Positions 3 to 64,000 of a stretch of 64,000 nt of DNA are shown here, piece by piece. The notes beneath the pieces were generated by a model that was not told the DNA's origin, searched no databases, and saw only the letters and a list, made by a program, of their open reading frames with translations. This stretch comes from Nemertoderma westbladi (taxonomy: Eukaryota > Animalia > Xenacoelomorpha), in assembly GCA_032718475.1 (NCBI GenBank), contig JAUCBJ010008087.1, positions 20,465-84,464 on the forward strand, read 5' to 3'. How positions within the stretch are numbered: position 1 is the first letter of the stretch; the number at the start of each line of letters is the position of its first letter. Both the position numbers and the translations under genes were made by a program.

Positions 3-3000
3 ATACTCATCGGCCAAAACGCGCATGAGGCGCTCGAGACATTGGAGAAACGGCCTGCTCAACCGCAGCCACTGCAAACCTATGCGGTAAGAACTAGAGT
101 AGGTTGGTACTTTACTGGCCCTTCCCGCAGAACTCTCGAAGAGAGAATGCCACAAGAACGAATATACCAAGTAAACGATGGGGAAGTGGAGAGCAGTGAG
201 GTGGACGAACTAACTGAGGGAACACCATACTCCTCAGATAATGACGACATCTACCAACTCTTCGATGAAGTGAACACAATCGACCTACTTACAGAAAACA
301 AAACGTGGAAAAACCAGGTGAACCTATGTCAACTGATTCGCCCATCGGGACCCATTGATTACAATGACGAACTAAATGATGAGATAGAGCGCTGCAACGC
401 TAGAACTCGGGACGAACTCGCCGTACGATTCTTTACTCAAGAACTGGTAGAGCCCAATTCATACGATAAGGCCCTATCGATAGAAGAAGAAAGAGCCAAG
501 CAAATCCAGGAAACAACTACACGTTTTTTAAAGGACCAAGGTAGATATGAAATCGGCCTACCATTTCGAAAACGAGAACCTAGATTTATAAATAACAGAC
601 CCTTGGCAGAGAAAAGAATCGCTCAATTACATCGATGCCTTATGGCTAATGCTTCAGCTAAAGAAATGTACCAAATACAGTTGAAGAAATTTATAACAAA
701 GGGATACGCGGAGCGAGTACCAGAAGGAACACCAGTGACTGAGAGAACGTATTACTTAACACATCATTACGTTCCCAAACCCGGTAAACCCCACGAAGTA
801 CGAGTCGTATTCAATGGCTCCGCCCTATATATGGGCCAATCCCTCAATTCCGAGTTGTTACCAGGATCCAACTTACTCCAATCTTTGTTGGGAATACTTT
901 TAAGATCAAGACAATATTCCATCGCGTTCGCCTCCGATATAGAAGGAATGTTCTTACAAGTCAAGGCGCTGGATAGAGATAGAGACAGCCTGAGATTTCT
1001 GTGGTGGCCTGAAGGAGACCTCAATCAGAAACCGGTAGAGTACTGGATGACCATCCAGTCTTTTGGGATCATATCTAGTCCTTCCAACGCCTGCTCCGTG
1101 GTGCGAACCACTGCGAATGACAACCGAGACGCCTTCTCAAAAGAGGTGATAGACAACATCAAGCGTAATATATACATGGACGATAATTTAAGGTCCCTTC
1201 CAACAGTAGAAGAAGCCATTGATGTCGCGAAAGGAACGGTAGAGTGTTTGAAAAGAGGTGGATTTCGACTGACGAAATTCACTAGCAACTCCCGTGAGTT
1301 TCTGGAAGCGATACCGTTAGAAGACCGAGGAACGAAAGACCTAGACTTAATAAAGGACGATCTTCCTGAAACCAAGACGCTTGGCTTGAAGTGGGACACT
1401 GAAAGAGACATCCTGTTTTTTCAGTTAAAACAGCGAGATAATCCAGTTCGGACCAAACGGATTTGTTTAAGTATCCTGAGCACTTATTTCGACCCATTGG
1501 GATTTATTAGCCCAGTTATAGTGATTGCTCGGAGTTTAGTACAACAAATGTGGCTTGAAAACCACTCATGGGACGATCCGCTTAAGGGAGAACTGTTAAA
1601 GAAATGGATGAAATGGGAAGATTCTCTACCTGCCATCGAGAACTTTATAATTTCCCGTGCATATTTTGGCCATGTTCTTCCTACGTATTCCTATCAACTC
1701 CATGTGTTTGGAGACGCCAGCGACATGGGAATAGGTATAGTAGCATATCTGCGAGTCGAAACTCCGGATGGAATCAAAGTCGCCTTGGTTACCTCTAAGG
1801 CATTGATTAACAACAAGTTAAAGGTTCCTCGAGCGGAGTTAAAGGCGGCTTTATACGCTACAGCCATCGGCCGGAACGTAACAGAACAAATCGACTATCC
1901 ACTGGAGAAAACGGTTTATTGGACCGACGCTTTACTCGTGTTGGAGTATCTAACCAATGAAGTCTGTCAGTTCAGCGTTTTTGTTACTAACAGGGTAGCT
2001 ATTATTCTTAGTCGCACAAAGATAGATCAATGGAGACATTGCCCTGGTACGATTAATCCAGCCGATATCGCCTCCAGGGGAGCAACTCCACAGGAACTGA
2101 TAGATACTCCAGATTGGTTGGGTGGACCCGACTTCCTGAGCAAGGAAGAGGATGAATGGCCTCCTCACCTTACTACGGCGGAGATTAGACAAGCCAAGGG
2201 AGCGGAGACAGTCAAACCTAAAACCCGGGCGAGTAAATCGAAGTTATTTAAACCGACGATCGATCTATCTGTATTACATACTTCCGGGAATGATGCTTCG
2301 GATCCACAATCCCTCGCCACAAATAAGTCTGTTGTGGAAATTAGAGATAGAGATTGGAAATCTGGAATACCAGACGTCTCGCAAGGAATCTCACCCCTGC
2401 TGCAGAGAGCAACGCATCACTACAGTTCCTGGAATCGGCTCTGTAAAGCCGTCACATATTTAAGGCGATGTTTTCATCATCACTACTCCAGGACGAAGAC
2501 CACTAGTGATACCGCTCCATTGACATCTGCACAAGTTCATGTTATTAAAAATTTACCCAAATATAAGACATCTGACTGGTTTCTCAAGGAGAAAATAAGC
2601 AGATACTGAGACTCCTGCAATGCTATGAAGATTCCGATAAGTATTTCCTGTTGTTGAGAAATCCGCAGATGCGCTTACGGGATCGCTTCTCTAGCACAAT
2701 GATAGATGGGTTAATACGTGTTGGAGGAAGGCTCACCAATGCGCCATTATCCTTTGACACTAAATTCCCCATACTCATTAGAAATCTTGAAGTACAAATC
2801 AAGATGATTGTAGATGTTCACAGCAAACTTTATCATGCTGGTAGAGAACGAGTTCTTAGCGAAATCCGAACTCGCTATTATTTTTATAAACCCCGTAGAG
2901 CTCTGAACCAAGTTCTTAGGAACTGCATACCCTGTAGGAAAGCATTCAGTAGGCCTTTAACACAGCGAGAGGCAGAATTACCTAGGGAACGAGTAAGCTT

Positions 3001-4030
3001 CTATGAACCACCTTTTACTAATACTGGTGTAGATTTATTTGGCCCTATTGAAGTATATCGTGCTAGGACTATAGTCAAGAGATGGTGTGTCATCTTCGTA
3101 TGCATGACTTGTAGAGCCATCCATCTCGATATGGTGAACGATCTATCTACCAACAGCTTCGTATTAAGTTTACGCCGACAGATCGCTCGCTTCGGGACGA
3201 GTAATACCATGAGATCGGATAAGGGAACGAACTTCATTGGTGCCAACAACGAAATACAGGCTTACGTGAAGGACTGGAACCAAAGACAGGTGGACGATCA
3301 GCTAAGGATAACAGCGTCTAGCTGGACCTTCAACGCCGCCGACGCCCCTTGGTGGGGAGCAAGTTGGGAGATATTAATTAGAAGTGTTAAGACCGCATTT
3401 CACTTTATAGTGCCATGCCGCGCGTATCTCACCGACGAACTTTTGCGGACGTTAATGGAGGAAATAGCTGCCTATCTTAACGAGAGACCGCTTATGCCAG
3501 TCTCATCGAGTCCCGATTCCCTGGAAGCGCTAACACCCGCGCACTTCCTACTGAAGAAACCTGTAGCCATGCTCCCACGATCGGAGATTGCCGACGGAGA
3601 CGAATACTGCCGTCGAACTTGGCAACTTATGCAGTTGCTATCCCGTCGTTTCGCTGACCATTTCGAGAAACATTATCTGCCCACGCTACAACTTCGAACT
3701 AAGTGGTTTGCACAGCAAGAAAACGTCAGCGCCGGAGATATGGTGCTTATTGTAGATCCAGACCTCCCACGTAAACGGTGGCAGACAGGTCGTATCATCG
3801 GGACTCACATCTCAAATGATGGTTTAGTACGCTCGGTAGAACTCGTCGTCATGCGGCGTAACTTCAAGAAGCCAGGCATAATCTTTGAGACGCAACAACT
3901 CAACCGCCCAGTTGGTCGTTTATGTTTACTGGAAAGAGACAGAGAACTCTCCGGAAACTATGGAAGGCAAGACACTCTTCCCACGACCACCTCCCTAATT
4001 CCTCAAACATCTAGGGACTCCCCAACGTGA
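3..4030 (+). pseudogene. pol: BEL/Pao pol polyprotein (end of protease, RT, RNase H, integrase, DUF5641), disrupted at ~2607-2650
   Basis: ILIG (protease end), NIYMDD (RT), LHVFGDAS/PRAEL/YWTDA/NPADIASRG (Pao RNase H), HxxxxH...CxxC, GVDLFGP, SDKGTNF, WGASWE (integrase). A stop at 2607-2609 plus a frameshift separates ORFs 42..2609 and 2651..4030. Confidence 0.95.
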
Positions 4031-7076: not shown

Positions 7077-7154
7077 CTGTTTAGAGTATTTACATATATT
7101 AGAAACTGTGATTTTTGTATATTTATAAACTTGAATCCCATTTTCTGGGAGCGG

Positions 7155-8275
7155 TGTAAAAGCTTTTGCGGATATAATCAGTCCCCCTCGCCCGCAAGGT
7201 ACCGTTATAGCTGTTTTAATGGACATAAAAGTCATTCTTCTATATGTGTGCTTTGGCGGACATGGTAAGGCAAAAAACCCGCAATGCGTCAAATACCCTG
7301 GCACAGCTTAGCCTTGATGATTCAGATTACGACATCTAACAGCTGGTTGCTGACATGGAAACGGCCATTGGACACATGGTTCTTTGTTTAGCTTAACAGC
7401 CAATCAGAGCGATTTTTTCTGTCGATGTGGAGATATTTAGCAGATCGTGCTAGGAGTGTTCAGTCTTACTGTTTTTCTTGATACTGTTGTGTTGTTTCTA
7501 TCTAGGCCAGGAACACCGGCTCTAGAGTCAATTCGTTTCAGACTTTAGAAGAAACATTAGTAGGCTTAGATTATAGAGCGTATAACTGTTATCGGTCTAG
7601 TACAATCAGTGCAATCAGCAGTAGTCTTATATCACTGCAACATACATTATTATACTGCTTTTTACTGTTGTGTTATGGTTGAATATTATTATCTGGAGAA
7701 CATCTATAAAGAACCCAAATTTCCCAATTTTCTTGATACACTACAGGTTAGAGAGACGGGTTACATATAGCGATTGCGACTTATATTATTGTGGTTTGTA
7801 GTGAATTTAATGCTATTTGATAAGCACTACATGAGTCAGTTGCTGTTCTCTTTATATATGATAAAATTCATTGACGGTCGGCAGATTAGTGTGCAGCATT
7901 GTGTGTTAACGGTAGTGTGCATGATTGTGAATGATAACTAAGCATTTCCTAAAGAATGCGCCTCATACGTGAATCATAAGCCTTACCGACTTACCGTTGT
8001 GTTTAGTATAAATCATATCTCTGTTTACCTAGATAGAGCGCCACGTCCTAAAGGAACTGTTAATATTTCCCGAAAGTGAATAATATTGGTCAGAAATTAT
8101 TTATTAACGATCAATCGAATAATACAGTAAGCTTACACTGCAATAACAATCTAAGCCCTCCGAATCCAGTCTCCCGGGTATATCCAGCGGGTGAATGGAC
8201 GCGCACTAGGCTGGCTTCGGCTAATGTTGTGTTTATTGGTATTAAATACTTGTCATTTTCTAAAGTCTATTTATA
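7155..8275 (+). repeat. LTR-A of BEL element 1 (lacks the last ~95 bp)
   Basis: Starts TGTAAAAGC after GGGAGCGG. Near-identical to 9067-10239 over ~7660-8275. Confidence 0.85.
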
Positions 8276-8439: not shown

Positions 8440-8606
8440 AAGTCTGAGGTCTAATCAAGGAACGAGGTGGTCTGACCGAGTATTCCGGAACTATGATCGT
8501 AGGTTTACTCAAGGATCGTCTGAGTCGAGCGAGCGTAGGTGATATGTCGAACAAGTTTCGGAATACTCGGTCAGACCACCTCGTTCCTTGATTAGACCTC
8601 AGACTT
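8440..8606. repeat. Fold-back inverted repeat, 53-bp arms with a 61-nt spacer
   Basis: 8440-8492 is the reverse complement of 8554-8606 with one mismatch. Confidence 0.9.
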
Positions 8607-9066: not shown

Positions 9067-10334
9067 TGTAAAAGCTTTTGTGGGATGTAACTGGCCCTTT
9101 TGCTTTGCAATCCAGTTCCCCCCCAGGCGCTGGAATACTCTAAAAAGCTCTCTAACTCGAATGATGCAAAGCGACCGGCTGATTGGCTGATTTGTTATAC
9201 GACGGGCTATTTGCAATGTTCTATCGGCCAACCAGAGCTATAGCAGCAGAGTATGCAACCAGGGCAACCGAGCGGAGTGACTCATTTTGTGTGTTGGCCA
9301 AGGGCTGCAAAAATCCTGATAGTTCGGCATTTAGATATTCGTGGAACCTGTGGAATCTGGTGTTCTGCCAATGAGAGCTATTCCTCTCTGTGTAAAAAGA
9401 TACCTGCAACGGTGTTAGAGTCAGAGAGTGTTTTTGTTACTGTTGTGTTGTTTCTATCTAGGCCAAGAACACCGGCTCTGGAGTCAATTGTTTCAGACTT
9501 TAGAAGAAACATTAGTAGGCTTAGATTATAGAACGTATAACTGTTATCTCGCCATAATTATCAACTAACCAAACAATCATATCATATCTTAACCTACCGT
9601 CTTAATGCTATTTACTGTTGTTATTATTTGTATCAGTTGGTTGAATATTATTATTTGGAGAACATCTATAAAGAACCCAAATTTCCCAATTTTCTTGATA
9701 CACTACAGGTTAGAGAGACAGGTTACATATAGCGATTGCGACTTATATCATCGTGGTTTGTAGTGAGTTTAATGCTATTTGATAGGCACTACATGAGTCA
9801 ATTGCTGTTCTCTTTATATATGATAAAATTCATTGACGGTCGGCAGATTATTGTGCAGTATTGTGTGGTACCGGTAGTGTGCATGATTGTGGCTGATAAC
9901 TAAGCATTTCCTAAAGAATGCGCCTCATACGTGAATCATAAGCCTTACCGACTTACCGTTGTGTTTAGTACAAGTCATATCTCTGTTTACCTAGATAGAG
10001 CGCCACGTCCTAAAGGAACTGCTAATATTTCCCGAAAGTGAATAATATTGGTCAGAAATTATTTATTAACGATCAATCGAATAATACAGTAAGCTTACAC
10101 TGCAATAACAATCTAAGCCCCATCCGAATCCAGTCTCCCGGGTATATCCAGCGGGTGAATGGACGCGCACTAGGCTGGCTTCGGCTAATGTTGTGTTTAT
10201 TGGTATTAAATCCTTGTCATTTTCTAAAGTCTATTTATAAACCAAAAGACATATAAATTTTGGCAGGTTAAACTGCTAAAGGTCTTCAAAAGCGCGTACA
10301 GTCGGGATCCCACGCCAACCAGGATCCCGTCACA
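9067..10334 (+). repeat. LTR-B, complete 3' LTR of BEL element 1 (1268 bp, TG...CA)
   Basis: TGTAAAAG...CCCGTCACA, CCAAT boxes at ~9181 and ~9368, terminal hairpin shared with the LTR at 60000-60733. Confidence 0.88.
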
Positions 10335-23255: not shown

Positions 23256-23753
23256 ACCTGGATTGATTTGTATAGACTTTAACGCCTCGTCAGCAAGGAC
23301 CAAATTGTGTAAATAAACTATTAAGCTTTAAAAAGAATAAAACTGTACCTATACGTCCCAGTGATCGGTAGGTTTCGGCCCGCAGCTGAAGGCGTTCTCA
23401 AGAGGCCAAGCCAGCAAATGTGTTGCGTACTGTAAATACTTCACTGACTCCTGCTACTACAAAGAAACTCTGTTCCCACAAAAATCTGTTCTTCCAGCCA
23501 ATTAAAAATTGTATAAACTTACGATTCAATATGAATGTATTTCTCTCTTCATAATTCTATATCGATTAAGTTCAAATATTCATACGGATACTGCGAAAAG
23601 TTATAGTACCCTACTCACAAGGACTGGACTACTACATACAGTAAATAAAATACAGTAATGATAATAACCTTGTTTTACAGCCTACATCAATAACAGTACA
23701 GTTGTAGTTTCGGTGGTAAATCAATACAAGGTTGTGTGTTTTAAGTTTTGAGA

Positions 23754-32620: not shown

Positions 32621-32723
32621 CCGATGTCGAACAAGTTGGACGGCAGAAATACCCAGATATCTCAGGGATTGCTGTATAGCAGACGAGATGGAAGTGAAAG
32701 CGGCCCTCCAACCTTACAGTACG
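32621..32723 (+). CDS. MOSPD1: MOSPD1/3-like exon 3 (linker)
   Basis: TTTTAG| acceptor, open frame PMSNKLD...GPPTLQY, donor G|GTACGT in phase 1, which matches the phase required by exon 4. Confidence 0.75.
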
Positions 32724-35700: not shown

Positions 35701-38700
35701 ATAGATCCAACCTTACAGTACAGTACGATAGATCCAACCTTCCAGTACAGTACGATAGATCCAACCTTACAGTGCGATAGATCCAACCTTACAGTACGAT
35801 AGATCCAACCTTACAGCTCGATAGATCCAACCTTACAGTTACAGTATGATAGATCCAACCTTACAGTTACAGTATGATAGATCCAACCTTACAGTTGCAG
35901 TACGATAGATCCAACCTTACAGTACGATAGATCCAACCTTACAGTGCGATAGATCCAACCTTACAGTACGATCGGTCCAACCTTACAGTACGATAGGTCC
36001 AATCTTACAGTACAATAGATCCAACCTTACAGTACGATAGATCCAACCTTACAGTGCCATAGATCCAACCTTACAGTACGGTACGTCCAACCTTACAGTA
36101 TGATGGATCCAACCTTACAGTGCGATAGATCCAACCTTACAGTACGATCGGTCCAACCTTACAGTATGATGGATCCAACCTTACAGTGCGATAGATCCAA
36201 CCTTACAGTACGATAGATCCAACCTTACAGCTCGATAGATCCAACCTTACAGTTACAGTATGATAGATCCAACCTTACAGTTACAGTATGATAGATCCAA
36301 CCTTACAGTTGCAGTACGATAGATCCAACCTTACAGTACGATAGATCCAACCTTACAGTGCGATAGATCCAACCTTACAGTGCCATAGATCCAACCTTAC
36401 AGTACGGTACGTCCAACCTTACAGTATGATGGATCCAACCTTACAGTGCGATAGATCCAACCTTACAGTACGATCGGTCCAACCTTACAGTATGATAGAT
36501 CCAACCTTACAGTACGATATGTCCAACCTTACAGTACGATAGATCCAACCTTACAGTACGATCGGTCCAACCTTACAGTATGATGGATCCAACCTTACAG
36601 TGCGATAGATCCAACCTTACAGTACGATAGATCCAACCTTACAGTACAATAGATCCAACCTTACAGTACGATAGATCCAACCTTACAGTACGATAGATCC
36701 AACCTTACAGTACAGTACGATAGATCCAACCTTACAGTGCGATAGGTCCAACCTTACAGTATGATAGGTCCAATCTTACAGTACGATAGATCCAACCTTA
36801 CAGTACGATAGATCCAACCTTACAGTACGGTACGTCCAACCTTACAGTACGGTACATCCAACCTTACAGTACGATAGATCCAACCTTACAGTACGATAGT
36901 TCCAACCTTACAGTACGATAGATCCAACCTTACAGTGCGATAGATCCAACCTTACAGTACGATATGTCCAACCTTACAGTACGATAGATCCAACCTTACA
37001 GTATGATAGATCCAACCTTACAGTACAGTACGATAGATCCAACCTTACAGTGCGATAGATCCAACCTTACAGTGCGATAGATCCAACCTTACAGTGCGAT
37101 AGATCCAACCTTACAGTACAGCACGATAGATCCAACCTTACAGTACAGTACAATAGATCCAACCTTCCAGTACAGTACGATAGATCCAACCTTACAGTAC
37201 AGTACGATAGATCCAACCTTCCAGTACAGTACGATAGATCCAACCTTACAGTACGATAGATCCAACCTTACAGTACAGTACGATAGATCCAACCTTCCAG
37301 TACAGTACGATAGATCCAACCTTACAGTGCGATAGATCCAACCTTACAGTACGATAGATCCAACCTTACAGTACGATAGATCCAACCTTACAGTTACAGT
37401 ACGATAGATCCAACCTTACAGTTACAGTACGATAGATCCAACCTTACAGTTGCAGTACGATAGATCCAACCTTCCTTACAGTGCGATAGATCCAACCTTA
37501 CAGTACGATAGATCCAACCTTCCAGTACAGTACGATAGATCCAACCTTACAGTACAGTACGATAGATCCAACCTTCCAGTACAGTACGATAGATCCAACC
37601 TTCCAGTACAGTACGATAGATCCAACCTTACAGTGCAATAGGCCCAACCTTACAGTGCGATAGATCCAACCTTACAGTACGATAGATCCAACCTTGCAGT
37701 ACGATAGATCCAACCTTACAGTACGATAGATCCAACCTTACAGTACAGTACGATAGATCCAACCTTACAGTACAGTACGATAGATCCAACCTTACGTTCA
37801 GTACGATAGATCCAACCTTCCAGTACAGTACGATAGATCCAACCTTACAGTGCGATAGATCCAACCTTACAGTACGATAGATCCAACCTTACAGTACGAT
37901 AGATCCAACCTTACAGTACGATAGATCCAACCTTACAGTACGATAGATCCAACCTTACAGTACGATAGATCCAACCTTACAGTACAGTCGATAGATCCAA
38001 CCTTACAGTACGATAGATCCAACCTTACAGTGCGATAGATCCAACCTTACAGTACGATAGATCCAACCTTACAGTACGATAGATCCAACCTTACAGTACG
38101 ATAGATCCAACCTTACAGTACAGCACGATAGATCCAACCTTACAGTACAGTACGATAGATCCAACCTTCCAGTACAGTACGATAGATCCAACCTTACAGT
38201 GCGATAGATCCAACCTTACAGTACGATAGATCCAACCTTACAGTACGATAGATCCAACCTTACAGTCAGTACGATAGATCCAACCTTACAGTTACAGTAC
38301 GATAGATCCAACCTTACAGTTGCAGTACGATAGATCCAACCTTACAGTGCGATAGATCCAACCTTACAGTACAGCACGATAGATCCAACCTTACAGTACA
38401 GTACGATAGATCCAACCTTCCAGTACAGTACGATAGATCCAACCTTACAGTGCGATAGATCCAACCTTACAGTACGATAGATCCAACCTTACAGTACGAT
38501 AGATCCAACCTTACAGTACGATAGATCCAACCTTACAGTACGTCGATAGATCCAACCTTACAGTACAGTACGATAGATCCAACCTTACAGTTGCAGTACG
38601 ATAGATCCAACCTTCCAGTACAGTACGATAGATCCAACCTTACAGTGCGATAGATCCAACCTTACAGTACGATAGATCCAACCTTACAGTACGATAGATC

Positions 38701-41700
38701 CAACCTTACAGTACGATAGATCCAACCTTACAGTACAGCACGATAGATCCAACCTTACAGTACAGTACGATAGATCCAACCTTCCAGTACAGTGCGATAG
38801 ATCCAACCTTACAGTACGATAGATCCAACCTTACAGTGCGATAGATCCAACCTTACAGTACGATAGATCCAACCTTACAGTACGATAGATCCAACCTTAC
38901 AGTACGATAGATCCAACCTTACAGTACAGCACGATAGATCCAACCTTACAGTACAGTACGATAGATCCAACCTTCCAGTACAGTACGATAGATCCAACCT
39001 TACAGTGCGATAGATCCAACCTTACAGTACGATAGATCCAACCTTACAGTATGATAGATCCAACCTTACAGTACGATAGATCCAACCTTACAGTTACAGT
39101 ACGATAGATCCAACCTTACAGTTACAGTACGATAGATCCAACCTTACAGTTGCAGTACGATAGATCCAACCTTACAGTGCGATAGATCCAACCTTACAGT
39201 TACAGTACGATAGATCCAACCTTACAGTACAGTACGATAGATCCAACCTTACAGTGCGATAGATCCAACCTTACAGTTACAGTACGATAGATCCAACCTT
39301 ACAGTTACAGTATGATAGATCCAACCTTACAGTTACAGTACGATAGATCCAACCTTACAGTTACAGTACGATAGATCCAACCTTACAGTACGATAGATCC
39401 AACCTTACAGTGCGATAGATCCAACCTTACAGTACGATCGGTCCAACCTTACAGTACGATAGGTCCAATCTTACAGTACGATATATCCAACCTTACAGTA
39501 TGATAGATCCAACCTTACAGTGCGATAGATCCAACCTTACAGTACGGTACATCCAACCTTACAGTACGATAGATCCAACCTTACAGTACGATATGTCCAA
39601 CCTTACAGTACGATAGATCCAACCTTACAGTACGATCGGTCCAACCTTACAGTACGATGGATCCAACCTTACAGTGCGATAGATCCAACCTTACAGTACG
39701 ATAGATCCAACCTTACAGTACGATAGATCCAACCTTACAGTACGATAGATCCAACCTTACAGTACGATAGATCCAACCTTACAGTACAGTACGATAGATC
39801 CAACCTTACAGTGCGATAGGTCCAACCTTACAGTACGATAGGTCCAATCTTAAAGTACGATAGATCCAACCTTACAGTACGATAGATCCAACCTTACAGT
39901 ACGGTACGTCCAACCTTCCAGTACGGTACATCCAACCTTACAGTACGATAGATCCAACCTTACAGTACGATAGGTCCAACCTTACAGTACGATAGATCCA
40001 ACCTTACAGTGCGATAGATCCAACCTTACAGTACGATATGTCCAACCTTACAGTATGATAGATCCAACCTTACAGTACGATAGATCCAACCTTACAGTAC
40101 AGTACGATAGATCCAACCTTACAGTGCGATAGATCCAACCTTACAGTGCGATAGATCCAACCTTACAGTGCGATAGATCCAACCTTACAGTACGATATGT
40201 CCAACCTTACAGTACGATAGGTCCAATCTTACAGTACGATAGATCCAATCTTACAGTACAATAGATCCAACCTTACAGTACGATAGATCCAACCTTACAG
40301 TACGATAGATCCAACCTTACAGTACGATAGATCCAACCTTACAGTACGATAGATCCAACCTTACAGTGCGATAGATCCAACCTTACAGTACGATAGATCC
40401 AACCTTACAGTACAATAGGTCCAACCTTACAGTACGATAGATTCAACCTTACAGTGCAATAGATTCAACCTTACAGTACGATATGTTCAACCTTACAGTA
40501 CAGTACGATAGATCCAACCTTACAGTGCGATAGATCCAACCTTACAGTGCGATAGATCCAACCTTACAGTGCGATAGATCCAACCTTACAGTACAATGGA
40601 TCCAACCTTACAGTGCGATAGATCCAACCTTACAGTACGATAGATCCAACCTTACAGTACAATAGATCCAACCTTACAGTACGATAGATCCAACCTTACA
40701 GTACGATAGATCCAACCTTACAGTACGATAGATCCAACCTTACAGTACGATAGATCCAACCTTACAGTACAGTACGATAGATCCAACCTTACAGTGCGAT
40801 AGGTCCAACCTTACAGTACGATAGGTCCAATCTTACAGTACGATAGATCCAACCTTACAGTACGATAGATCCAACCTTACAGTACGGTACGTCCAACCTT
40901 CCAGTACGGTACATCCAACGTTACAGTACGATAGATCCAACCTTACAGTACGATAGGTCCAACCTTACAGTACGATAGATCCAACCTTACAGTGCGATAG
41001 ATCCAACCTTACAGTACGATATGTCCAACCTTACAGTACGATAGATCCAACCTTACAGTACGATAGATCCAACCTTACAGTACAGTACGATAGATCCAAC
41101 CTTACAGTGCGATAGATCCAACCTTACAGTGCGATAGATCCAACCTTACAGTGCGATAGATCCAACCTTACAGTACGATATGTCCAACCTTACAGTACGA
41201 TAGGTCCAATCTTACAGTACGATAGATCCAATCTTACAGTACAATAGATCCAACCTTACAGTACGATAGATCCAACCTTACAGTACGATAGATCCAACCT
41301 TACAGTACGATAGATCCAACCTTACAGTACGATAGATCCAACCTTACAGTACGGTACATCCAACCTTACAGTACGGTACATCCAACCTTACAGTACGATA
41401 GATCCAACCTTACAGTACAATAGGTCCAACCTTACAGTACGATAGATTCAACCTTACAGTGCAATAGATTCAACCTTACAGTACGATATGTTCAACCTTA
41501 CAGTACGATATATCCAACCTTACAGTACAATAGATCCAACCTTACAGTACAGTACGATAGATCCAACCTTACAGTGCGATAGATCCAACCTTACAGTGCG
41601 ATAGATCCAACCTTACAGTGCGATAGATCCAACCTTACAGTATGATATGTCCAACCTTACAGTACGATAGATCCAACCTTACAGTGCGATAGATCCAACC

Positions 41701-44700
41701 TTACAGTACGATCGGTCCAATCTTACAGTACGATAGATCCAACCTTACAGTATGATAGGTCCAACCTTACAGTGCAATAGGCCCAACCTTACAGTACGAT
41801 AGATCCAACCTTACAGTACGATAGATCCAACCTTACAGTACGATAGAGCCAACCTTACAGTACAATAGGTCCAATCTTACAGTACGATAGATCCAATCTT
41901 ACAGTACAATAGATCCAACCTTACAGTACGATAGATCCAACTTTACAGTACGATAGATCCAACCTTACAGTATGATAGATCCAACCTTACAGTATGGTAC
42001 ATCCAACCTTACAGTACGATAGATCCAACCTTACAGTACGATAGGTCCAATCTTACAGTACGATAGGTCCAACCTTACAGTACAGTACGATAGATCTAAC
42101 CTTACAGTACGGTACGTCCAACCTTACAGTACGATAGGTCCAACCTTACAGTACAGTACGATAGATCCAACCTTACAGTACGATAGATCCAACCTTACAG
42201 TACGATAGATCCAACCTTACAGTACGATAGATCCAACCTTACAGTACGGTACATCCAACCTTACAGTATGGTACATCCAATCTTACAGTACGATAGATCC
42301 AACCTTACAGTACGATAGATCCAACCTTACAGTACGATATGTCCAACCTTACAGTACGATAGATCCAACCTTACAGTACGATAGATCCAACCTTACAGTA
42401 CAGTATGATAGATCCAACCTTACAGTGCGATAGATCCAACCTTACAGTGCGATAGATCCAACCTTACAGTGCGATAGATCCAACCTTACAGTACAATATG
42501 TCCAACCTTACAGTACGATAGATCCAACCTTACAGTGCGATAGATCCAACCTTACAGTACGATATATCCAACCTTACAGTACGATAGATCCAACCTTACA
42601 GTACAGTACGATAGATCCAACCTTACAGTGCGATAGATCCAACCTTACAGTGCGATAGATCCAACCTTACAGTGCGATAGATCCAACCTTACAGTATGAT
42701 ATGTCCAACCTTACAGTACGATAGATCCAACCTTACAGTGCGATAGATCCAACCTTACAGTACGATCGGTCCAATCTTACAGTACGATAGATCCAACCTT
42801 ACAGTATGATAGGTCCAACCTTACAGTGCAATAGACCCAACCTTACAGTACGATAGATCCAACCTTACAGTACGATAGATCCAACCTTACAGTACGATAG
42901 ATCCAACCTTACAGTACAATAGGTCCAATCTTACAGTACGATAGATCCAATCTTACAGTACAATAGATCCAACCTTACAGTACGATAGATCCAACTTTAC
43001 AGTACGATAGATCCAACCTTACAGTACGATAGATCCAACCTTACAGTATGGTACATCCAACCTTACAGTACGATAGATCCAACCTTACAGTACGATAGGT
43101 CCAATCTTACAGTACGATAGGTCCAACCTTACAGTACAGTACGATAGATCTAACCTTACAGTACGGTACGTCCAACCTTACAGTACGATAGGTCCAACCT
43201 TACAGTACAGTACGATAGATCCAACCTTACAGTACGATAGATCCAACCTTACAGTACGATAGATCCAACCTTACAGTACGATAGATCCAACCTTACAGTA
43301 CGGTACATCCAACCTTACAGTATGGTACATCCAATCTTACAGTACGATAGATCCAACTTTACAGTACGATAGATCCAACCTTACAGTACGATATGTCCAA
43401 CCTTACAGTACGATAGATCCAACCTTACAGTACGATAGATCCAACCTTACAGTACAGTATGATAGATCCAACCTTACAGTGCGATAGATCCAACCTTACA
43501 GTGCGATAGATCCAACCTTACAGTGCGATAGATCCAACCTTACAGTACAATATGTCCAACCTTACAGTACGATAGATCCAACCTTACAGTGCGATAGATC
43601 CAACCTTACAGTACGATCGGTCCAATCTTACAGTACGATAGATCCAACCTTACAGTATGATAGGTCCAACCTTACAGTGCGATAGGTCCAACCTTACAGT
43701 ACGATAGATCCAACCTTACAGTACGATAGATCCAACCTTACAGTACGATAGATCCAACCTTACAGTACGATAGGTCCAATCTTACAGTACGATAGATCCA
43801 ATCTTACAGTACAATAGATCCAACCTTACAGTACGATAGATCCAACCTTACAGTACGATAGATCCAACCTTACAGTACGATAGATCCAACCTTACAGTAC
43901 GATAGATCCAACCTTACAGTACGGTCCATTCAACCTTACAGTACGATAGATCCAACATTACAGTACGATAGGTCCAATCTTACAGTACGATAGGTCCAAC
44001 TTTACAGTACAGTACGATAGATCCAACCTTACAGTACGGTACGTCCAACCTTACAGTACGATAGGTCCAACCTTACAGTACAGTACGATAGATCCAACCT
44101 TACAGTACGATAGATCCAACCTTACAGTACGATAGATCCAACCTTACAGTACGATAGATCCAACCTTACAGTACGGTACGTCCAACCTTACAGTACGGTA
44201 CATCCAACCTTACAGTACGATAGATCCAACCTTATAGTACGATAGGTCCAATCTTACAGTACGATAGGTCCAACCTTACAGTACAGTACGATAGATCCAA
44301 CCTTACAGTACGATAGATCCAACCTTACAGTACGATAGGTCCATTCTTTCAGTACGATAGATCCAACCTTACAGTACGATAGGTCCAATCTTACAGTACG
44401 ATAGATCCAACCTTACAGTACGATAGATCCAACCTTACAGTACGATAGATCCAACCTTACAGTACGGTACGTCCAACCTTACAGTACGATAGATCCAACC
44501 TTACAGTACGATAGGTCCATTCTTACAGTACGATAGGTCCAACCTTACAGTACAGTATGTTAGATCCAACCTTACAGTACGATAGATCCAACCTTACAGT
44601 ACGATAGGTCCAACCTTACAGTAAGATAGGTCCAACCTTACAGTACAATAGATCCAACCTTACAGTATGATAGATCCAACCTTACAGTACGATAGATCCA

Positions 44701-47700
44701 ACCTTACAGTACGATAGATCCAACCTTACAGTACAATAGATCCAACCTTACAGTACGATAGATCCAACCTTACAGTACGGTACGTCCAACCTTACAGTAC
44801 GATAGATCCAACCTTACAGTACGATATGTCCAATCTTACAGTACGATAGATCCAACCTTACAGTACGATAGGTCCAATCTTACAGTACGATAGATCCAAC
44901 CTTACAGTACGATAGATCCATCCTTACAGTACGATAGATCCAACCTTACAGTACGATAGATCCAACCTTACAGTACGATAGATCCAACCTTACAGTACGA
45001 TCGGTCTAATCTTACAGTACGATAGATCCAACCTTACAGTACAGTACGATAGATCCAACCTTACAGTACGGTACGATAGATCCAACCTTACAGTTAACAG
45101 TTACAGTACGATAGATCCAACCTTACAGTTACAGTACGATAGATCCAACCTTACAGTACGGTACGTCCAACCTTATAGTACGATAGATCCAACCTTACAG
45201 TGCGATAGATCCAACCTTACAGTACGATCGGTCCAATCTTACAGTACGATAGATCCAACCTTACAGTTACGATAGGTCCAACCTTACAGTACGATAGGTC
45301 CAACCTTACAGTACGATAGATCCAACCTTACAGTACAGTACGATAGATCCAACCTTACAGTACGATAGATCCAACCTTACAGTACGATAGGTCCATTCTT
45401 TCAGTACGATAGATCCAACCTTACAGTACGATAGGTCCAATCTTACAGTACGATAGATCCAACCTTACAGTACGATAGATCCAACCTTACAGTACGATAG
45501 ATCCAACCTTACAGTACGGTACGTCCAACCTTACAGTACGATAGATCCAACCTTACAGTACGATAGGTCCAATCTTACAGTACGATAGGTCCAACCTTAC
45601 AGTACAGTACGATAGATCCAACCTTACAGTACGATAGGTCCATTCTTACAGTACGATAGGTCCAACCTTACAGTACAGTACGTTAGATCCAACCTTACAG
45701 TACGATAGATCCAACCTTACAGTACGATAGGTCCAACCTTACAGTAAGATAGGTCCAACCTTACAGTACAATAGATCCAACCTTACAGTATGATAGATCC
45801 AACCTTACAGTACGATAGATCCAACCTTACAGTATGATAGATCCAACCTTACAGTACAATAGATCCAACCTTACAGTACGATAGATCCAACCTTACAGTA
45901 TGGTACGTCCAACCTTACAGTACGATAGATCCAACCTTACAGTACGATATGTCCAATCTTACAGTACGATAGATCCAACCTTACAGTACGATAGGTCCAA
46001 TCTTACAGTACGATAGATCCAACCTTACAGTACGATAGATCCAACGTTACAGTACGATAGATCCAACCTTACAGTACGATAGATCCAACCTTACAGTACG
46101 ATAGATCCAACCTTACAGTACGATCGGTCTAATCTTACAGTACGATAGATCCAACCTTACAGTACAGTACGATAGATCCAACCTTACAGTACGGTACGAT
46201 AGATCCAACCTTACAGTTAACAGTTACAGTACGATAGATCCAACCTTACAGTTACAGTACGATAGATCCAACCTTACAGTACGGTACGTCCAACCTTATA
46301 GTACGATAGATCCAACCTTACAGTGCGATAGATCCAACCTTACAGTACGATCGGTCCAATCTTACAGTACGATAGATCCAACCTTACAGTTACGATAGGT
46401 CCAACCTTACAGTACGATAGGTCCAACCTTACAGTACGATAGATCCAACCTTACAGTTACAGTACGATAGATCCAACCTTACAGTACGATAGATCCAACC
46501 TTACAGTACGGTACGTCCAACCTTACAGTACGATAGATCCAACTTTACAGTGCGATAGATCCAATCTTACAGTACGATCGGTCCAATCTTACAGTACGAT
46601 AGATCCAACCTTACAGTACGATAGATCCAACCTTACAGTACGATAGGTCCAATCTTACAGTACGATAGATCCAACCTTACAGTACGATAGATCCAACCTT
46701 ACAGTACGGTACGTCCAACCTTACAGTACGATAGATCCAACCTTACAGTACGATAGGTCCAATCTTACAGTACGATAGGTCCAACCTTACAGTACAGTAC
46801 GATAGATCCAACCTTACAGTACAGTACGATAGATCCAACCTTACAGTACGATAGATCCAACCTTACAGTACGATAGGTCCAATCTTACAGTACGATAGAT
46901 CCAACCTTACAGTACAGTACGATAGATCCAACCTTACAGTGCGATAGATCCAACCTTACAGTGCAATAGATCCAACCTTACAGTGCGATAGATCCAACCT
47001 TACAGTGCGATAGATCCAACCTTACAGTACAGTACGATAGATCCAACCTTACAGTACGATAGATCCAACCTTACAGTGCAATAGATCCAACCTTACAGTA
47101 CGATAGATCGATCCAACCTTACAGTACGATAGATCCAACCTTACAGTGCGATAGATCCAACCTTACAGTACGATAGATCCAACCTTACAGTGCGATAGAT
47201 CCAACCTTACAGTGCAATAGATCCAACCTTACAGTGCGATAGATCCAACCTTACAGTGCGATAGATCCAACCTTACAGTGCAATAGATCCAACCTTACAG
47301 TGCGATAGATCCAACCTTACAGTACGATAGATCCAACCTTACAGTGCGATAGATCCAACCTTACAGTGCGATAGATCCAACCTTACAGGTGCAATAGATC
47401 CAACCTTACAGTGCGATAGATCCAACCTTACAGTGCGATAGATCCAACCTTACAGTGCAATAGATCCAACCTTACAGTGCGATAGATCCAACCTTACAGT
47501 GCGATAGATCCAACCTTACAGTACAGTACTATAGATCCAACCTTACAGTACGATAGATCCAACCTTACAGTACGATAGATCCAACCTTACAGTACGATAG
47601 ATCCAACCTTACAGTACGGTACGTCCAACCTTACAGTACGATATGTCCAACCTTACAGTACGATAGATCCAACCTTACAGTACAGTACGATAGATCCAAC

Positions 47701-50104
47701 CTTACAGTACGATAGATCGATCCAACCTTACAGTACAGTACGATAGATCCAACCTTACAGTGCGATAGATCCAACCTTACAGTGCGATAGATCCAACCTT
47801 ACAGTACGATAGATCCAACCTTACAGTACAGTACGATAGATCCAACCTGACAGTACGATAGATCGATCCAACCTTACAGTACAGTACGATAGATCCAACC
47901 TTACAGTGCGATAGATCCAACCTTACAGTGTGATAGATCCAACCTTACAGTACGATAGATCCAACCTTACAGTACAGTACGATAGATCCAACCTTACAGT
48001 ACGATAGATCGATCCAACCTTACAGTACAGTACAATAGATCCAACCTTACAGTACGATAGATCCAACCTTACAGTACAGTACGATAGATCCAACCTTACA
48101 GTACGATAGATCGATCCAACCTTACAGTACAGTACGATAGATCCAACGTTACAGTACGATAGATCCAACCTTACAGTACAGTACGATAGATCCAACCTTA
48201 CAGTACGATAGATCGATCCAACCTTACAGTACAGTACGATAGATCCAACCTTACAGTACGATAGATCGATCCAACCTTACAGTACAGTACGATAGATCTA
48301 ACCTTACAGTACGATAGATCCAACCTTACAGTACGATAGATCCAACCTTACAGTACAGTACGATAGATCCAACCTTACAGTACGATAGATCGATCCAACC
48401 TTACAGTACAGTACGATAGATCCAACCTTACAGTGCGATAGATCCAACCTTACAGTGCGATAGATCTAACCTTACAGTACAGTACGATAGATCCAACCTT
48501 ACAGTACGATAGATCGATCCAACCTTACAGTACAGTACGATAGATCCAACGTTACAGTGCGATAGATCCAACCTTACAGTACAGTACGATAGATCCAACC
48601 TTACAGTACGATAGATCGATCCAACCTTACAGTACAGTACGATAGATCCAACCTTACAGTGCGATAGATCCAACCTTACAGTACAGTACGATAGATCCAA
48701 CCTTACAGTAGGATAGATCGATCCAACCTTACAGTACAGTACGATAGATCCAACCTTACAGTACGATAGATCCAACCTTACAGTACAGTACGATAGATCC
48801 AACCTTACAGTACGATAGATCGATCCAACCTTACCGTACAGTACGATAGATCCAACCTTACAGTGCGATAGATCCAACCTTACAGTGCGATAGATCCAAC
48901 CTTACAGTTACAGTACGATAGATCCAACCTTACAGTTACAGTACGATAGATCCAACCTTACAGTACAGCACGATAGATCCAACCTTACAGTACAGTACGA
49001 TAGATCCAACCTTCCAGTACATTACGATAGATCCAACCTTACAGTACGATAGATCCAACCTTACAGTGCGATAGATCCAACCTTACAGTGCGATAGATCC
49101 AACCTTACAGTACGATAGATCCAACCTTACAGTTACAGTACGATAGATCCAACCTTACAGTTACAGTACGATAGATCCAACCTTACAGTTACAGTACGAT
49201 AGATCCAACCTTACAGTATGATAGATCCAACCTTACAGTACGATAGATCCAACCTTACAGTTACAGTACGATAGGTCCAACCTTACAGTACGATAGATCC
49301 AACCTTACAGTGCGATAGATCCAACCTTACAGTGCGATAGATCCAACCTTACAGTGCGATAGATCCAACCTTACAGTTACAGTACGATAGGTCCAACCTT
49401 ACAGTACGATAGATCCAACCTTACAGTGCGATAGATCCAACCTTACAGTGCGATAGATCCAACCTTACAGTGCGATAGATCCAACCTTACAGTGCGATAG
49501 ATCCAACCTTGCAGTACAGTACGATAGATCCAACCTTACAGTACGATAGGTCCAACCTTACAGTACGATAGGTCCAACCTTACAGTACGATAGATCCAAC
49601 CTTACAGTGCGATAGATCCAACCTTACAGTACAGTACGATAGGTCCAACCTTACAGTACAGTACGATAGATCCAACCTTACAGTACGATAGATCCAACCT
49701 TACAGTACGATAGATCCAACCTTACAGTACGATAGATCCAACCTTACAATGCGATAGATCCAACCTTACAGTGCGATAGATCCAACCTTACAGTGCGATA
49801 GATCCAAACTTACAATGCGATAGATCCAACCTTACAGTACAGTACGATAGATCCAACCTTACAGTACGATAGATCCAACCTTACAGTGCGATAGATCCAA
49901 CCTTACAGTACGATAGATCCAACCTTACAGTACGATAGATCCAACCTTCCAGTACAGTACGATAGATCCAACCTTACAGTACAGTACGATAGATCCAACC
50001 TTACAGTACAGTACGATAGATCCAACCTTACAGTACGATAGATCCAACCTTACAGTGCGATAGATCCAACCTTACAGTGCGATAGATCCAACCTTACATA
50101 CGGT
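32707..50104. repeat. 17.4-kb satellite, 22-bp monomer TCCAACCTTACAGTACGATAGA (26/27/28-bp variants), roughly 750 units, filling MOSPD intron 3
   Basis: Continuous tandem array without unique spacers. The unit count is estimated from length. Confidence 0.98.
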
Positions 50105-54302: not shown

Positions 54303-54667
54303 GTTAAAAAACTTGAACCAGCATGCTGATTCGAGGCAGTTAACATGTACATACTGTATATTGCACTGTACTTACTGATAATATAAAAGGCCTAAGTCGA
54401 CGGGCAAAAATGGTTTAACAATTTCGTGAAATGACCGCGGTATATTTCCTGTGATAAACATGCAACACCGGAACATCAGCTGGTAATGTAATAAATATGA
54501 AAGTGAAAACTGAAAATCTTTGCTGCCTATATGAAGTATTGATGTAGGCCTACTTTTTCTTTCACACTGTTATTTCTATCAGTATTTCCGGTCTGGTGTT
54601 AGCGGTAGGCCTACATCTGGATGTTGTATTTTTGAAAACCTATTAATTATCTATTAATTGACAGAAA

Positions 54668-55798
54668 ATGTGCGAAATCAAAAACGTAGGTGGTTACAAC
54701 GTGATTTCTCCCAAACGGGGAGAATCGCTATTTGACCTGGAAATAAATACTAGTGGAGAATGCTCTGAAAGGTCTTCCGTTAGACCCCAAGGGGTCATCA
54801 TTGGAATGTACCGCAACAATGCCGGTGTCATCAGTGAAGCCGACCAACTGCCGTATCTTGTTCATCCAGTGCCGCTGTCTGTCAACTTTGACCTGAACAC
54901 TTCAATGCATTTGACTAAGTTTGAGAGCGAACTTACAAGACCTGAAGGTCAACATCATCTATTAAAGTGGATCATCAATGAAAAGGATAACTTTAAGAAG
55001 GGAGGTAATTTTAATTTAGATGCTGATTTTGTGGTCAATCGAAGATTTCTTAGATCGTTGCTGCAATCCCCTTATGGAGGTGGAGATGACTGGATTGTCG
55101 CCTGCGCCAAATTCAAAGGAACTATCTATGTGATGAAAATGAAAACAGAAAATGACGTTCGAAGAATCATGTCTGCATCTGAGTTTGAGTTATCGTGTTC
55201 CAGATACGGACACAAATTTGAGCAGTTTCTGACGAGCGGTAGCCCAGGTAACAAACCAGATCCGAAATCAGCCATGGACGAAAACGACGAAATAAATACG
55301 GTGTATCGAACGCAACTCGGAATAAATAAGATAATATTCCCGACGGAAATTGATGCAATTGATTCTAGAATCGATATCAAGAGTCGTCTACCAAAGCCAT
55401 GTGAGCTCGTTGAGCTCAAAACCTCGACACAGATTCAGCATTCAGGGCAGCAGAATACATTTGAACGTTTTAAAACGTTGTCCTTCTGGTCTCAGGCAGC
55501 GATATCTAACATCCCAAAAGTTATTGTCGGGTTCAGAAATCGAGATGGTATCGTCAAGGAAGTTAAGGAGTTTCCAATGTCCAAACTAAAGAGTTTGGGG
55601 CGCCATACATGGCAACCGGCGGTTTGCTATGGGTTTGCTGACAAAGTCCTGGCATTCATGGGTGAAGCGTTTAATGAGGATAACCCCAACAAGGTTGTTG
55701 TCTTTACCTGGAACCGGGGTCGGAATACCTTAAGTGGTCATGATGCATCTGGTCTCGTGGAGGTTGTGCCTAAGTGGTATATAGATGGTATAAAATAA
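54668..55798 (+). CDS. DXO: DXO/Dom3Z/Rai1-family decapping exoribonuclease, intronless and divergent
   Basis: DFVVNRR...SPY...W, YGHKFEQF, TEID, VELKTS, FWSQ and VIVGFRNRDG follow the RAI1-family motif order. Confidence 0.88.
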   Translation: MCEIKNVGGYNVISPKRGESLFDLEINTSGECSERSSVRPQGVIIGMYRNNAGVISEADQLPYLVHPVPLSVNFDLNTSMHLTKFESELTRPEGQHHLLKWIINEKDNFKKGGNFNLDADFVVNRRFLRSLLQSPYGGGDDWIVACAKFKGTIYVMKMKTENDVRRIMSASEFELSCSRYGHKFEQFLTSGSPGNKPDPKSAMDENDEINTVYRTQLGINKIIFPTEIDAIDSRIDIKSRLPKPCELVELKTSTQIQHSGQQNTFERFKTLSFWSQAAISNIPKVIVGFRNRDGIVKEVKEFPMSKLKSLGRHTWQPAVCYGFADKVLAFMGEAFNEDNPNKVVVFTWNRGRNTLSGHDASGLVEVVPKWYIDGIK

Positions 55799-59999: not shown

Positions 60000-60733
60000 T
60001 GTAATTAACGGAATGCAAATGATACGTTGGGTGGTTTGGGTGTGTGTGCGTATGTCTATCGAGACCGAGGGGGAAACATAACGCTAATCCCGTCTCGGTG
60101 TGTAAGTGGATTCAATTCCACTTCATTACCCTCCAGCAAATGGGATAATGGCATTTTCAGCAATATGTTGGAGATACGAGATTAGCAATATTAATCTCGT
60201 ATCACAACCAGCATTTGGGGGGGGGGGGCAACACAAGCCCCGAAGCCACACACAAAGGAAGGTTAGAGGTCAAACCACCTCAGAGGACACAGCTAGTAGA
60301 GGCTAGCAGCAGAGGGGAAACACTCCCAGAGAGTGCAAGGGTGAGAAGTAGGTTATTAGCCAATAGGGGGGAGGAAAGCACGTGATAGGGCACAGGAGAG
60401 CATCCATTAGGTAACAGGCCAAAGTAGCGTAGGAGGTGAAGCAATATTGGTATATCAATCATATATTACCCCCCGTTACCGGTTTGTGATTCAGTTATTG
60501 TTTCACCGTCATCAATATCGGCTATCAACCATATACTGAACCGGTAACATAACATTTCATCTGCCATCATATTAATTGTGCTATTATTGTACATATTACA
60601 AGACCAAGAAATAACATCAAAACTCTGAACGCTTTTATCCAACGGCCTCGGCCAAGCTACCAGTAACACCATCTTAAAGCCTGCGGTGACGCTTATAGCA
60701 ACCTACCCAGTCGGGATCTCTGATCCCGTCACA
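60000..60733 (+). repeat. 5' LTR of BEL element 2 (734 bp, TGTAA...CCCGTCACA)
   Basis: TG...CA ends, same terminal motif as LTR-B of element 1, directly followed by gag-like sequence. Confidence 0.8.
60461..60496 (+). promoter_or_regulatory. Predicted LTR core promoter (TATA-like ATATATTA plus Inr TCAGTT, TSS ~60493)
   Basis: TATA-like box about 30 bp upstream of a TCAGTT initiator. Confidence 0.55.
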
Positions 60734-60789
60734 GTGAAACAATCGACCAACTGCCATCAAACTGTGACTGCAAGAATAAGAGGAAGAAG

Positions 60790-63700
60790 ATGAGCACAGG
60801 AGAACCCCGATTATCAGACGGAGAGAGAACGCCGCCACAGACCCCGGACGATACCAACCAAACGATCCGTGAGGCCGCGACGCGACGGTATCAACCTGCG
60901 ACGCCGGATTCACCGACGAGGGACGATCCGGTACCCCAAGCGGAGGGCAGCCGTCAACCACGAGCGGGAGACGAGTTGACGCACGACGGCGGTCGGAGTA
61001 CCGAAGTTGCCGGCCAGCCACAGGCCGAGGGCATCGGACGGCCCACCGGAACGGCGACGGTGGGGCCGCCGGTACGACGCCGAACCAGGAGAGGTGGAGG
61101 AGTCGGCGAAGAAGACGTCGGGACGAGTGATCGTCTACGACGGGCCTACAACGCCACGAAGAAACTACTGAAGGATTCCAGAGAGGGTAGACCAGCCTAA
61201 GTTACACCAAAGGCTAGGTGAGTCTAACAAACATTTCCGGTATTTAGTCCGCTTTGGACAGGGAGAACTGGCGAGTGAGAGAGCGAGGGGGGTCACCACC
61301 GAACTGTTCAAACTGTGGCAATCCGGGGTTATGGGGCCTGAAGTAGTGTACGTAGGGCCGTACTTAGTGGATGCTAGGGGAATTAAGTTAGTGGGTTGGG
61401 CGGATCCGCACGAGGGCGAACCCGAGGTTAACCCCGAGGATTCGGTCTCGTCGGTTAGCGAGAACCCCAGAAAGTGGGGGAAAGTTAGTAGGACAGAGAG
61501 GCGACGAGAGTCCATCGCAATCTATAAGTCCGCTACATCCTCCGCGAAAGCAAGAAGGGTGTTGGAGATAGATCTGGCGTGTCAACTAGACATGGTGGCG
61601 CTAGACCAGAAATAATTAGAGAGGCAGTTGGAAGAGGGAACTGCGTTGTTAGAGAAAGAGAGAGAGTTGGCGAGGGAATGTAGAGAGAGGGCCGAAAGGG
61701 TGGCGAAGAACTGTAGTACGTTAGTAACTGTAACTGTAGAACGTATTATAATAATACGTTAGAGGGCATTAACATTAATAGTACCGTAGTAGACAACCCT
61801 AACCAAACTTTCATTGCAGGAAATAATCTTTTACCCGGTAACAATAATTCTGATTTAAATATACAAAATAATAATTCTAACTTAAATATACAAAATAATA
61901 ACCCTAATTTAAACGCACAAAATAATCTAAATAACAACTTTAATTCAAACGAACAAAATAATCCTAATTCTAACTTAAATATACAAGATAATTTAAACAA
62001 TATTCCGAATTCCGAACAAAATAATTTAAATAATTCAAATAATTTTGGCAATAATATTGTTGATAACGGTGCTATTAACACGAACGCAGCAAACATAGGT
62101 GGTCCGACCAGCGAGAGCCTGGAAGGCCACGTAGTTAGTATGCAGGGAGTAGCGGGGGTGAGTCACCCCGACGGGAGCCTGCGAGGCCACGTAGTTAGGC
62201 AGGGAAGAGCGGGGGTGAGTCAACCCGACAAGAGCTTGCAAGGCCACGCAGTGGTAGAGGGAGAGGCGGGGGTGAATAGACCCAGCCGCAGTAGAGATAG
62301 CACGTCGACTAGAGAGGGGCGTAGAAGCGAAATAGGAGATAGTGAAGTAATAGGTGGCGAGGGGGGGGGGGGGGCTACGGGCGCCCCACGACGAGAGATT
62401 AGTGGCGAGAGTGGGGGGGGGGGGGGGGCAGAGAATGTCCCACGAGGGTCGGCGGATAATGCGCGGGGCGAGTTAGGTGAACCGCGGCATCCGACGACAG
62501 AGAATAGTAGGGGGATTACGAGTATCCTCAGCAGCGTCCAACCGGCTAGAGAGAGAGAGAGAGAGGTTGGCGCCGTGAGCGGGCGAGCGACGAGATGTCG
62601 AGCCCAGTCGGATAACGGAAGAAGAACAGTGGAGTTTAACCAGGAGGTCGAAGAGAGATCTCATGAGCGGGAACGCTACACTGAAGAGAGAACAAGTGAA
62701 GAGAAAAGAAGAATCGTTGCTACGAGCGACCGGAGAGCGAGGACGGATAGCGAACCGTCGGTAATAGAGATGGAGTTGGAGAGTCAGTGGGGTCAAACTC
62801 CGGGAGATTGCCATCGCCCTGGAGTGACGCAGCCTGGCGAGATATACCATACGCCGGGAGAGGGGTACCGGTACAAGGATGAGAACAGGAGAGGGGATCG
62901 AAGAGAAACTTCCCGACGGGATATAGCTGCCGTATATAAGGCGCTCATCGTGCTAAAGACGCTAGATGCGCCATACGAACTCAACGCATCAAATAACATC
63001 ACCACAATAGCGCAGGCACTGCCAATCTGGCTAAGGAACAAATGGAGGAAGATCGCCTTCTCCACTCGGGAGAAGAAAGGTGCGGAACCGGGCCTAGAAG
63101 AAATGTCAAACTTCCTCAACTATGAAGCAGAGTTGATTACAGACCCAGTCTACAGTGAGGATAGTTTGGGGAAGGCGCTGAAGACCGAATACAACAGGCC
63201 TAAACCCGAACATAATCCGGCAGATGCATTCCCGAGAGTAAGACAGTCGCTACCACATGCGGCCACACAGGGGACTACAAGTCCACAGTTAGCTGGGAGT
63301 AGGGCCACACCGTGGCAGGGACAGAAACAAAATGACAACACGAACAAATATAATCCCAACACACCCAGTAGGCCGAGTCCAAATGGCCAAGGCACTAAAC
63401 CGGTAGATATGAATCTGCGCGCAATACGTGAAGGGCTATACAGGGAGCGCTACAATTCAGAATACGAATGTCAATTGCATAGGGATGGAACACATAAGAC
63501 CATGAGTTGTAAGCATTGGCAAGTGTTGCCTAAAAAAGATCGGGTAGCCTACGCAGATACAAACGGACTATGTCATTGATGCGTGGTAGAGGGACACAGA
63601 TCTGGAGAGTGTAGAGAAACACCGATAGGAGACGATGAGACTGGAGGCTAAAAAATGGCTATGAGCACGACAGGAGCAAGAAGAAAGAGGAAAGTACTAC

Positions 63701-64000
63701 TCGGGGTAGTACCAGTGAGGATATCAGGAAAGGGCGGCCGATCAGTCACAACATTGATGCTGGTCGACAGCGGAGCAGCCTTCATGCTGGTGGAGAATTG
63801 GGTGGCTGAGGAGGGTTACAGACGAGGCCGAGTAGGATGGCAGTAACTACTATCTCGAGCAAGGATGAGGTCCTGGAGATGAGGACGGGAAGGTGCGAGA
63901 TATCAGCAATAGCACCAGGATGTGATTATGGGGTGACCATCGACCCCATACAGATTATAGAATCGATTAATATAAATGCCAGGAGACCCACCAGGATCGA
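60790..64000 (+). pseudogene. gag: Disrupted BEL gag-protease
   Basis: IAQALPIWLRNKW...LEEMSNFL (end of the DUF1759-type capsid region), CQLH....H....C and CH*C....H....C knuckles, VLLGVVPVRI...LVDSGA protease. Multiple stops and frameshifts. Confidence 0.85.

Follow-up and report, generated by a model that had tools for sequence, protein, structure and literature searches.

Probable self-priming of reverse transcription in a lineage of BEL/Pao retrotransposons, with primers that may be assembled by splicing

How does a BEL/Pao retrotransposon begin reverse transcription when no tRNA-binding site follows its 5' LTR? The question is raised by a 64,000-nt stretch of Nemertoderma westbladi DNA (the window, below) that carries two such elements, element 1 and element 2. 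The ICTV account of the Belpaoviridae describes host-tRNA priming on an 18-nt primer-binding site (PBS) for tRNA-Arg or tRNA-Gly and calls BEL/Pao replication poorly understood; membership itself is defined by pol phylogeny, the PBS being part of the description (PMC8742986). Another way to prime is known from Tf1, where the element's own RNA anneals to the PBS through its first 11 nt, a piece that RNase H then cuts away (excerpts of PMC7175516). According to the excerpts of PMC6317226, PMC4600332 and PMC5341516, Tf1/sushi elements prime themselves as well, and Tcn1 and the TAR lineage of plant copia elements are predicted to. An earlier note on this DNA proposed that element 2 primes itself in the manner of Tf1. 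Covariation across related families supports that reading, with the +1 and the RNase H cut as predicted positions, and we hold it to be quite probable that element 2 and its relatives represent Tf1-like self-priming in a BEL/Pao lineage, the primer being the element's own RNA.

The features of element 2 that matter here, in window coordinates, are:

60101..60733, + strand: 5' LTR, about 633 bp, TG...CA, with a probable start
60462..60468, + strand: TATA-like box, putative in function, 31 nt before the predicted +1
60491..60496, + strand: Inr-like TCAGTT; predicted +1 at 60493; alternatively readable as a 3' splice site
60493..60506, + strand: predicted self-primer; 60497-60506 are exact pairs, and 60494-60496 lengthen the helix past a one-base bulge
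60712..60728, + strand: 7-bp hairpin at the end of U5 adjoining the PBS, common to element 1; z -3.0
60734..60747, + strand: non-tRNA PBS directly past the LTR; 60734-60743 exact
60790..64000, + strand: broken BEL/Pao gag-protease region; homology at 62932-63834, RT beyond the window

The decamer ATTGTTTCAC is found a single time in the 64,000 nt, at 60497-60506. Its exact reverse complement is 60734-60743, the first 10 nt past the LTR, just as the earlier note had claimed. The tRNA site that it reported missing is indeed missing: there is no TGG in the 37 nt past 60733. That LTR end is backed by a 3' end in common with the LTR of element 1 (10323-10334). The start had been put at 60000, giving 734 bp. 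It is more likely to lie at 60101 (TGTAAG), because a single-copy contig stops at 60129 and because depth rises sharply in the bin 60085-60241; in contigs of four public runs depth is that of single-copy DNA up to about 60100 and that of an abundant family beyond. Of the proposed promoter elements, TATATTA begins at 60462, and the A of TCAGTT follows 31 nt later, at 60493. In a fold of 60493-60760 the 5' end pairs with the sequence past the LTR in both the MFE and the centroid structure (z -2.99), including the bulge and G-U pair by which the helix had been said to extend, and the fold model gives the helix between 5' end and PBS a probability of 0.99. Any such 10-mer arose in the element 2 LTR in 20 of 20,000 dinucleotide shuffles (offsets 0-5), and near the predicted +1 in 1 of 20,000. 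Under relaxed rules (G-U pairs, any acceptor) 3 of 60 shuffled PBSs equalled the score of element 2.

Of 121 stored proteins, 103 match the region downstream in their gag-protease part, with a best E of 2e-18. The region is interrupted by stops and frameshifts, and this copy is defective. A Pfam search of the ORF and an Rfam search of 60050-60850 gave no match, and a search for tRNA genes in the window found none. The gag-region ORF holds an Asn-rich internal repeat at 61840-62033. A sister subfamily shares 60285-60496 and diverges exactly at the start of the 10-nt partner (contigs of X1 and X2); in run X1 it realigns over the LTR end and PBS, at 60633-60772, with 28 differences and 13 gaps. 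Its departure from the alignment at 60496 may reflect a separate primer/PBS pair.

The earlier note had called for covarying complementarity across BEL families that lack a TGG site. Relatives were gathered with the RT/RNase H of element 1, aligned with 35 of 120 listed homologues, as the query; we used the best 80 of 205 confirmed loci, all from metagenome contigs, which together with the window query form 63 groups at 85% amino-acid identity. RT/RNase H similarity among the compared families is no more than about 39-72%. Viral contigs were searched for BEL relatives as well and none were found. For eight families among these 80 loci a comparison of two LTR copies settled where the LTR ends; with the window they make nine fixed-end cases, in which the first TGG after the LTR is at +12 or later, or absent. 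A match to the LTR-end pattern in L001 falls inside a phage gene and was set aside as chance.

Covariation is what we found. Under a strict rule seven of the nine fixed-end cases (window included) reach 10-15 exact pairs, each equalled in 0 of 300 shuffles, while L038 and L042 reach only 6; among the cross-family pairs that served as control, 1 of 72 reaches 10. With G-U pairs and any YAG acceptor allowed, all nine reach the threshold against 5 of 72 cross-family pairs, the score of L010 being equalled by 1 of 60 shuffles. A scan for splice junctions in the 58 loci with enough upstream DNA (from the best 80 of 205) returned 14 matches, each 10-15 nt long, and brought in seven further families; neither of two wrong-pairing controls gave a single one (0 of 58 each). 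A wider scan (53 loci in 39 families, again from the best 80 of 205) looked for a helix joining upstream leader sequence to a position like that of a primer site: 20 of 39 families have one of at least 10 nt, while each of three controls gave 3 of 39. The relaxed, junction and wider scan rules were fixed after set A had been read by eye; those of the scans (GT or AT start, spacer 0-5 nt) derive from set A, and the controls were run under the same rules.

The wider scan left 19 of the 39 families with no match, and in many of these the LTR may be absent from the contig. L035 has an LTR pair and yet no match, and L004, which groups with the nearest database relatives of element 1, has none either. 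Our final 20 families are the 20 of the wider scan minus L033, whose match is probably chance, plus L010, found by the strict rule. Counting the window, 21 PBSs comprise 20 distinct 10-mers, which differ at a median of 5 positions, and each PBS is paired with its own LTR or leader; they have no sequence in common beyond the first two letters. All nine fixed-end cases have the helix starting 0-3 nt past the LTR, the place required of a primer. In one family, a pair that is G-C in L039 is G-U in L038. The predicted primer and the PBS keep their position and their complementarity and covary from family to family. In L037 (1069-1170) several near-copies stand in tandem behind a PBS-like 13-mer.

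The earlier note overlooked a predicted intron that divides the partner in most relatives. In 17 of the 20 families the partner comes together only where a predicted GT-AG splice in the LTR joins two exons, the downstream one supplying 5-8 of the paired nucleotides; the predicted introns are 71-478 nt long where measurable, and 12 of the 17 donors read GTAAG. Only three relatives (L012, L015 and L045) and the window element have a contiguous partner, and element 2 is the contiguous type, the most Tf1-like case. In fold models with an arbitrary 5' start the spliced helix has a probability of 0.66-0.99 in six of seven families (L013, 0.01), and in the unspliced RNA the exon-2 part pairs with a probability of 0.00 in six of seven (L010, 0.79). 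A quick tree makes L012 sister to L018 and L015 sister to L027, a contiguous with a spliced form each time (SH-aLRT 100 and 97). Such placement fits a presumed repeated loss of the intron. A 12-nt helix across an intron with a non-canonical donor, seen by eye in L059 (1-135), was left out of the counts.

What of element 1? Its features are:

3..4030, + strand: pol in two frames (PF05380, PF17921, PF18701)
7155..8275, + strand: truncated tandem LTR copy 3' of pol, breaking off inside the candidate primer
9067..10334, + strand: 3' LTR, with the same U5 hairpin at its end (10303-10329), z -3.2
10233..10242, + strand: candidate primer, 29 nt past TATTAAA (10204) and 92 nt ahead of the LTR end

This element, with 892 protein homologues, has a BEL-type pol in which a Pao RNase H region is followed by integrase, PF05380 (E 1.6e-36) coming first and PF17921 and PF18701 next. 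In the quick tree it is an unplaced long branch. Both of its LTRs were said to bear a site equivalent to that of element 2, and this was not borne out: TTTTACTGT is found only at 7660, and at 9611 it is an A that precedes TTTACTG. The two "LTRs" of that comparison both sit 3' of pol, one full and one a truncated tandem copy, and a partner for the 9-mer is absent from the window. As a primer, 7660/9611 was rejected, lying about 715 nt before the LTR end compared with 62-227 nt in the nine fixed-end cases; the argument from element 1 was circular and probably pointed to the wrong site. The stretch 10233-10242 appears to be the better candidate, preferred because the helix of other families sits 62-227 nt before the LTR end. 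Contigs aligned to the end of this LTR show mixed flanks at 10334, with an agreement of 0.43-0.45 in three runs and a single contig in the fourth. Loose contig ends at 10302 (12, 1 and 11 contigs in X2, X3 and X4) belong to a sister LTR family that shares 10245-10300. By eye, the ACA end of that family is followed by eight letters complementary to 10235-10242, a weak hint drawn from unlinked contigs.

The 55-nt block 10245-10300 is common to a far more abundant repeat family with different ends, and the terminal hairpin is common to several LTR families. About 3 kb separates pol from the LTRs (4030-7154), with a broken ORF-like stretch at about 5640-7076 that looks by eye to be rich in Cys and His; a second copy of 6722-7171 stands at 8634-9083, and there is an inverted repeat at 8440-8606. 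Elsewhere the window holds a MULE-like transposase ORF (15573-18023), a tandem duplication of 1,816 bp with identical copies, which is either recent or an artefact of assembly (18369-21998), a DUF1295 ORF (23745-24560), a 22-bp satellite of about 749 copies (32707-50102) and a RAI1/DXO gene in a single ORF (54662-55798).

We propose the following course of events. Transcription of element 2 would begin at about 60493, and the first 14 nt would fold onto the PBS, to which they are complementary, as the fold predicts. By analogy with Tf1, the element's own RNase H would cut the RNA immediately past the helix on its 3' side, which would give a 3'-OH ending in AC at the LTR edge. From there RT could copy through U5 and R as far as the cut and then jump to the 3' end. 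In 17 of the 20 related families, splicing of the LTR intron of 71-478 nt is predicted to be needed before there is a primer. Since the cut would lie 3' of the junction, strong-stop DNA would never copy the junction, and the intron could therefore persist in both LTRs if the 3' copy stays unspliced. Splicing would in this way license the 5' end for priming, and the unspliced 3' copy would keep the intron heritable; contiguous primers, as in element 2, might arise when a spliced 3' copy gets copied. The spacing of TATA-like box and Inr fits in the window and in L013, and loosely in L012, and neither is so placed in six of the nine fixed-end cases. Because only three of the nine have a TATA-like box no farther than about 45 nt from the helix, the primer may not be the extreme 5' end of the RNA in the relatives. 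The wider proposal, which we favour with some reserve, is that a broad and old branch of BEL/Pao self-primes, that ancestrally the spliceosome builds the primer from two LTR exons, and that the window element is an intron-loss derivative.

Several other readings of the helix deserve to be weighed against a cleaved primer. It might be regulatory, masking the PBS in spliced, translated RNA or helping packaging, with the unspliced genome primed by a host RNA. A pairing that depends on splicing would suit a switch, and six of the nine fixed-end cases have no TATA-like box near the helix; however, PBSs alike only in their first two letters would fit no single host primer, and in the window element, L012, L015 and L045, which pair without splicing, the PBS would always be masked. 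A cleaved primer is also favoured because strong-stop synthesis running to the cap would copy the junction and lose the intron at once, a loss that a cut 5-8 nt beyond the acceptor would avoid. We consider a regulatory helix improbable. Only a little less so is a primer made from the 3' terminus of the element's own RNA at the poly(A) site, or from a short LTR-derived RNA acting in trans. The TATTAAA of element 1 at 10204 may serve as a poly(A) signal, the truncated LTR copy breaks off within the candidate primer, at the counterpart of 10239, and in so abundant a family LTR-only transcripts are plausible. Yet among the 19 matching families A[AT]TAAA lies between helix and LTR end in 9 and within 40 nt upstream of the helix in just one, where it is inside the helix. 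Element 2 lacks a canonical signal upstream and has TATA/Inr spacing instead. The positions of poly(A) signals speak against the RNA 3' end as primer, with element 1 as a possible exception.

It is very unlikely, in our judgement, that an internal tRNA fragment or other host RNA anneals to the PBS and that the complement in the LTR is incidental. Some PBSs do contain GTTCGA, which resembles the T-loop of tRNAs. Such a primer, however, would leave family-specific complementarity at splice junctions (14 of 58 against 0 of 58) unexplained, even though tRNA halves serve some copia lineages according to the excerpts of PMC6317226. That the whole is a chance inverted repeat is scarcely credible: the window has only 10 exact pairs, and under relaxed rules 3 of 60 shuffles equal its score, but the cross-family controls largely refute chance, as do the shuffles near +1 (1 in 20,000). 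A cleaved primer from the element's own RNA is the reading that we retain.

How does this lineage compare with known systems? Like Belpaoviridae in general it has Gag-PR-RT-RH-IN homology, LTRs within or near 0.2-1.2 kb and a PPT-like tract ahead of the 3' LTR; unlike the ICTV description, it lacks the 18-nt PBS for tRNA-Arg or tRNA-Gly in the window element and the eight fixed-end relatives. Significance of the U5 hairpin is confined to the two window elements (z about -3, against -1.2 to +1.0 in eight relatives), and it is not general in the lineage; for Tf1-type priming, Lin and Levin 1998, by its title, reportedly describes a U5 stem-loop adjoining the PBS. In most relatives, unlike Tf1, the partner is divided by a predicted intron. 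Tf1/Tf2 of S. pombe, Tj1 of S. japonicus, Tf1/sushi and the Tcn1 chromoviruses, all Ty3/gypsy, likewise have a short LTR-adjacent PBS complementary to their own 5' RNA and no tRNA site, as far as the excerpted sources describe them; the lineage studied here has BEL/Pao proteins and not a Ty3/gypsy chromovirus pol, and so is not a member of that group. For the plant Ty1/copia elements TAR, Houba and Osr-1 self-priming is likewise predicted from sequence complementarity; they belong to another superfamily and to plants, and the excerpts of PMC6317226 do not mention splice dependence.

Our search of the openly accessible literature found no report of self-priming or of a spliced primer in BEL/Pao. 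Look-ups of PBS and priming terms in PMC554778, PMC3118150, PMC2774666 and PMC6238403 gave no mention, and there is nothing on BEL priming in the excerpts of PMC8220671, PMC13524379 and PMC3601003.

If the proposal is correct, BEL/Pao would be the third superfamily with self-priming, and its members in this lineage would no longer rely on host tRNA ends. A primer made at a splice junction would couple reverse transcription to host splicing, and would account for the survival of an intron inside an LTR. The finding also suggests a rule for annotating those BEL elements in which tRNA-based PBS finders return nothing. Each family offers precise and cheap tests, namely the 5' end of the RNA, the splice junction and the cut site.
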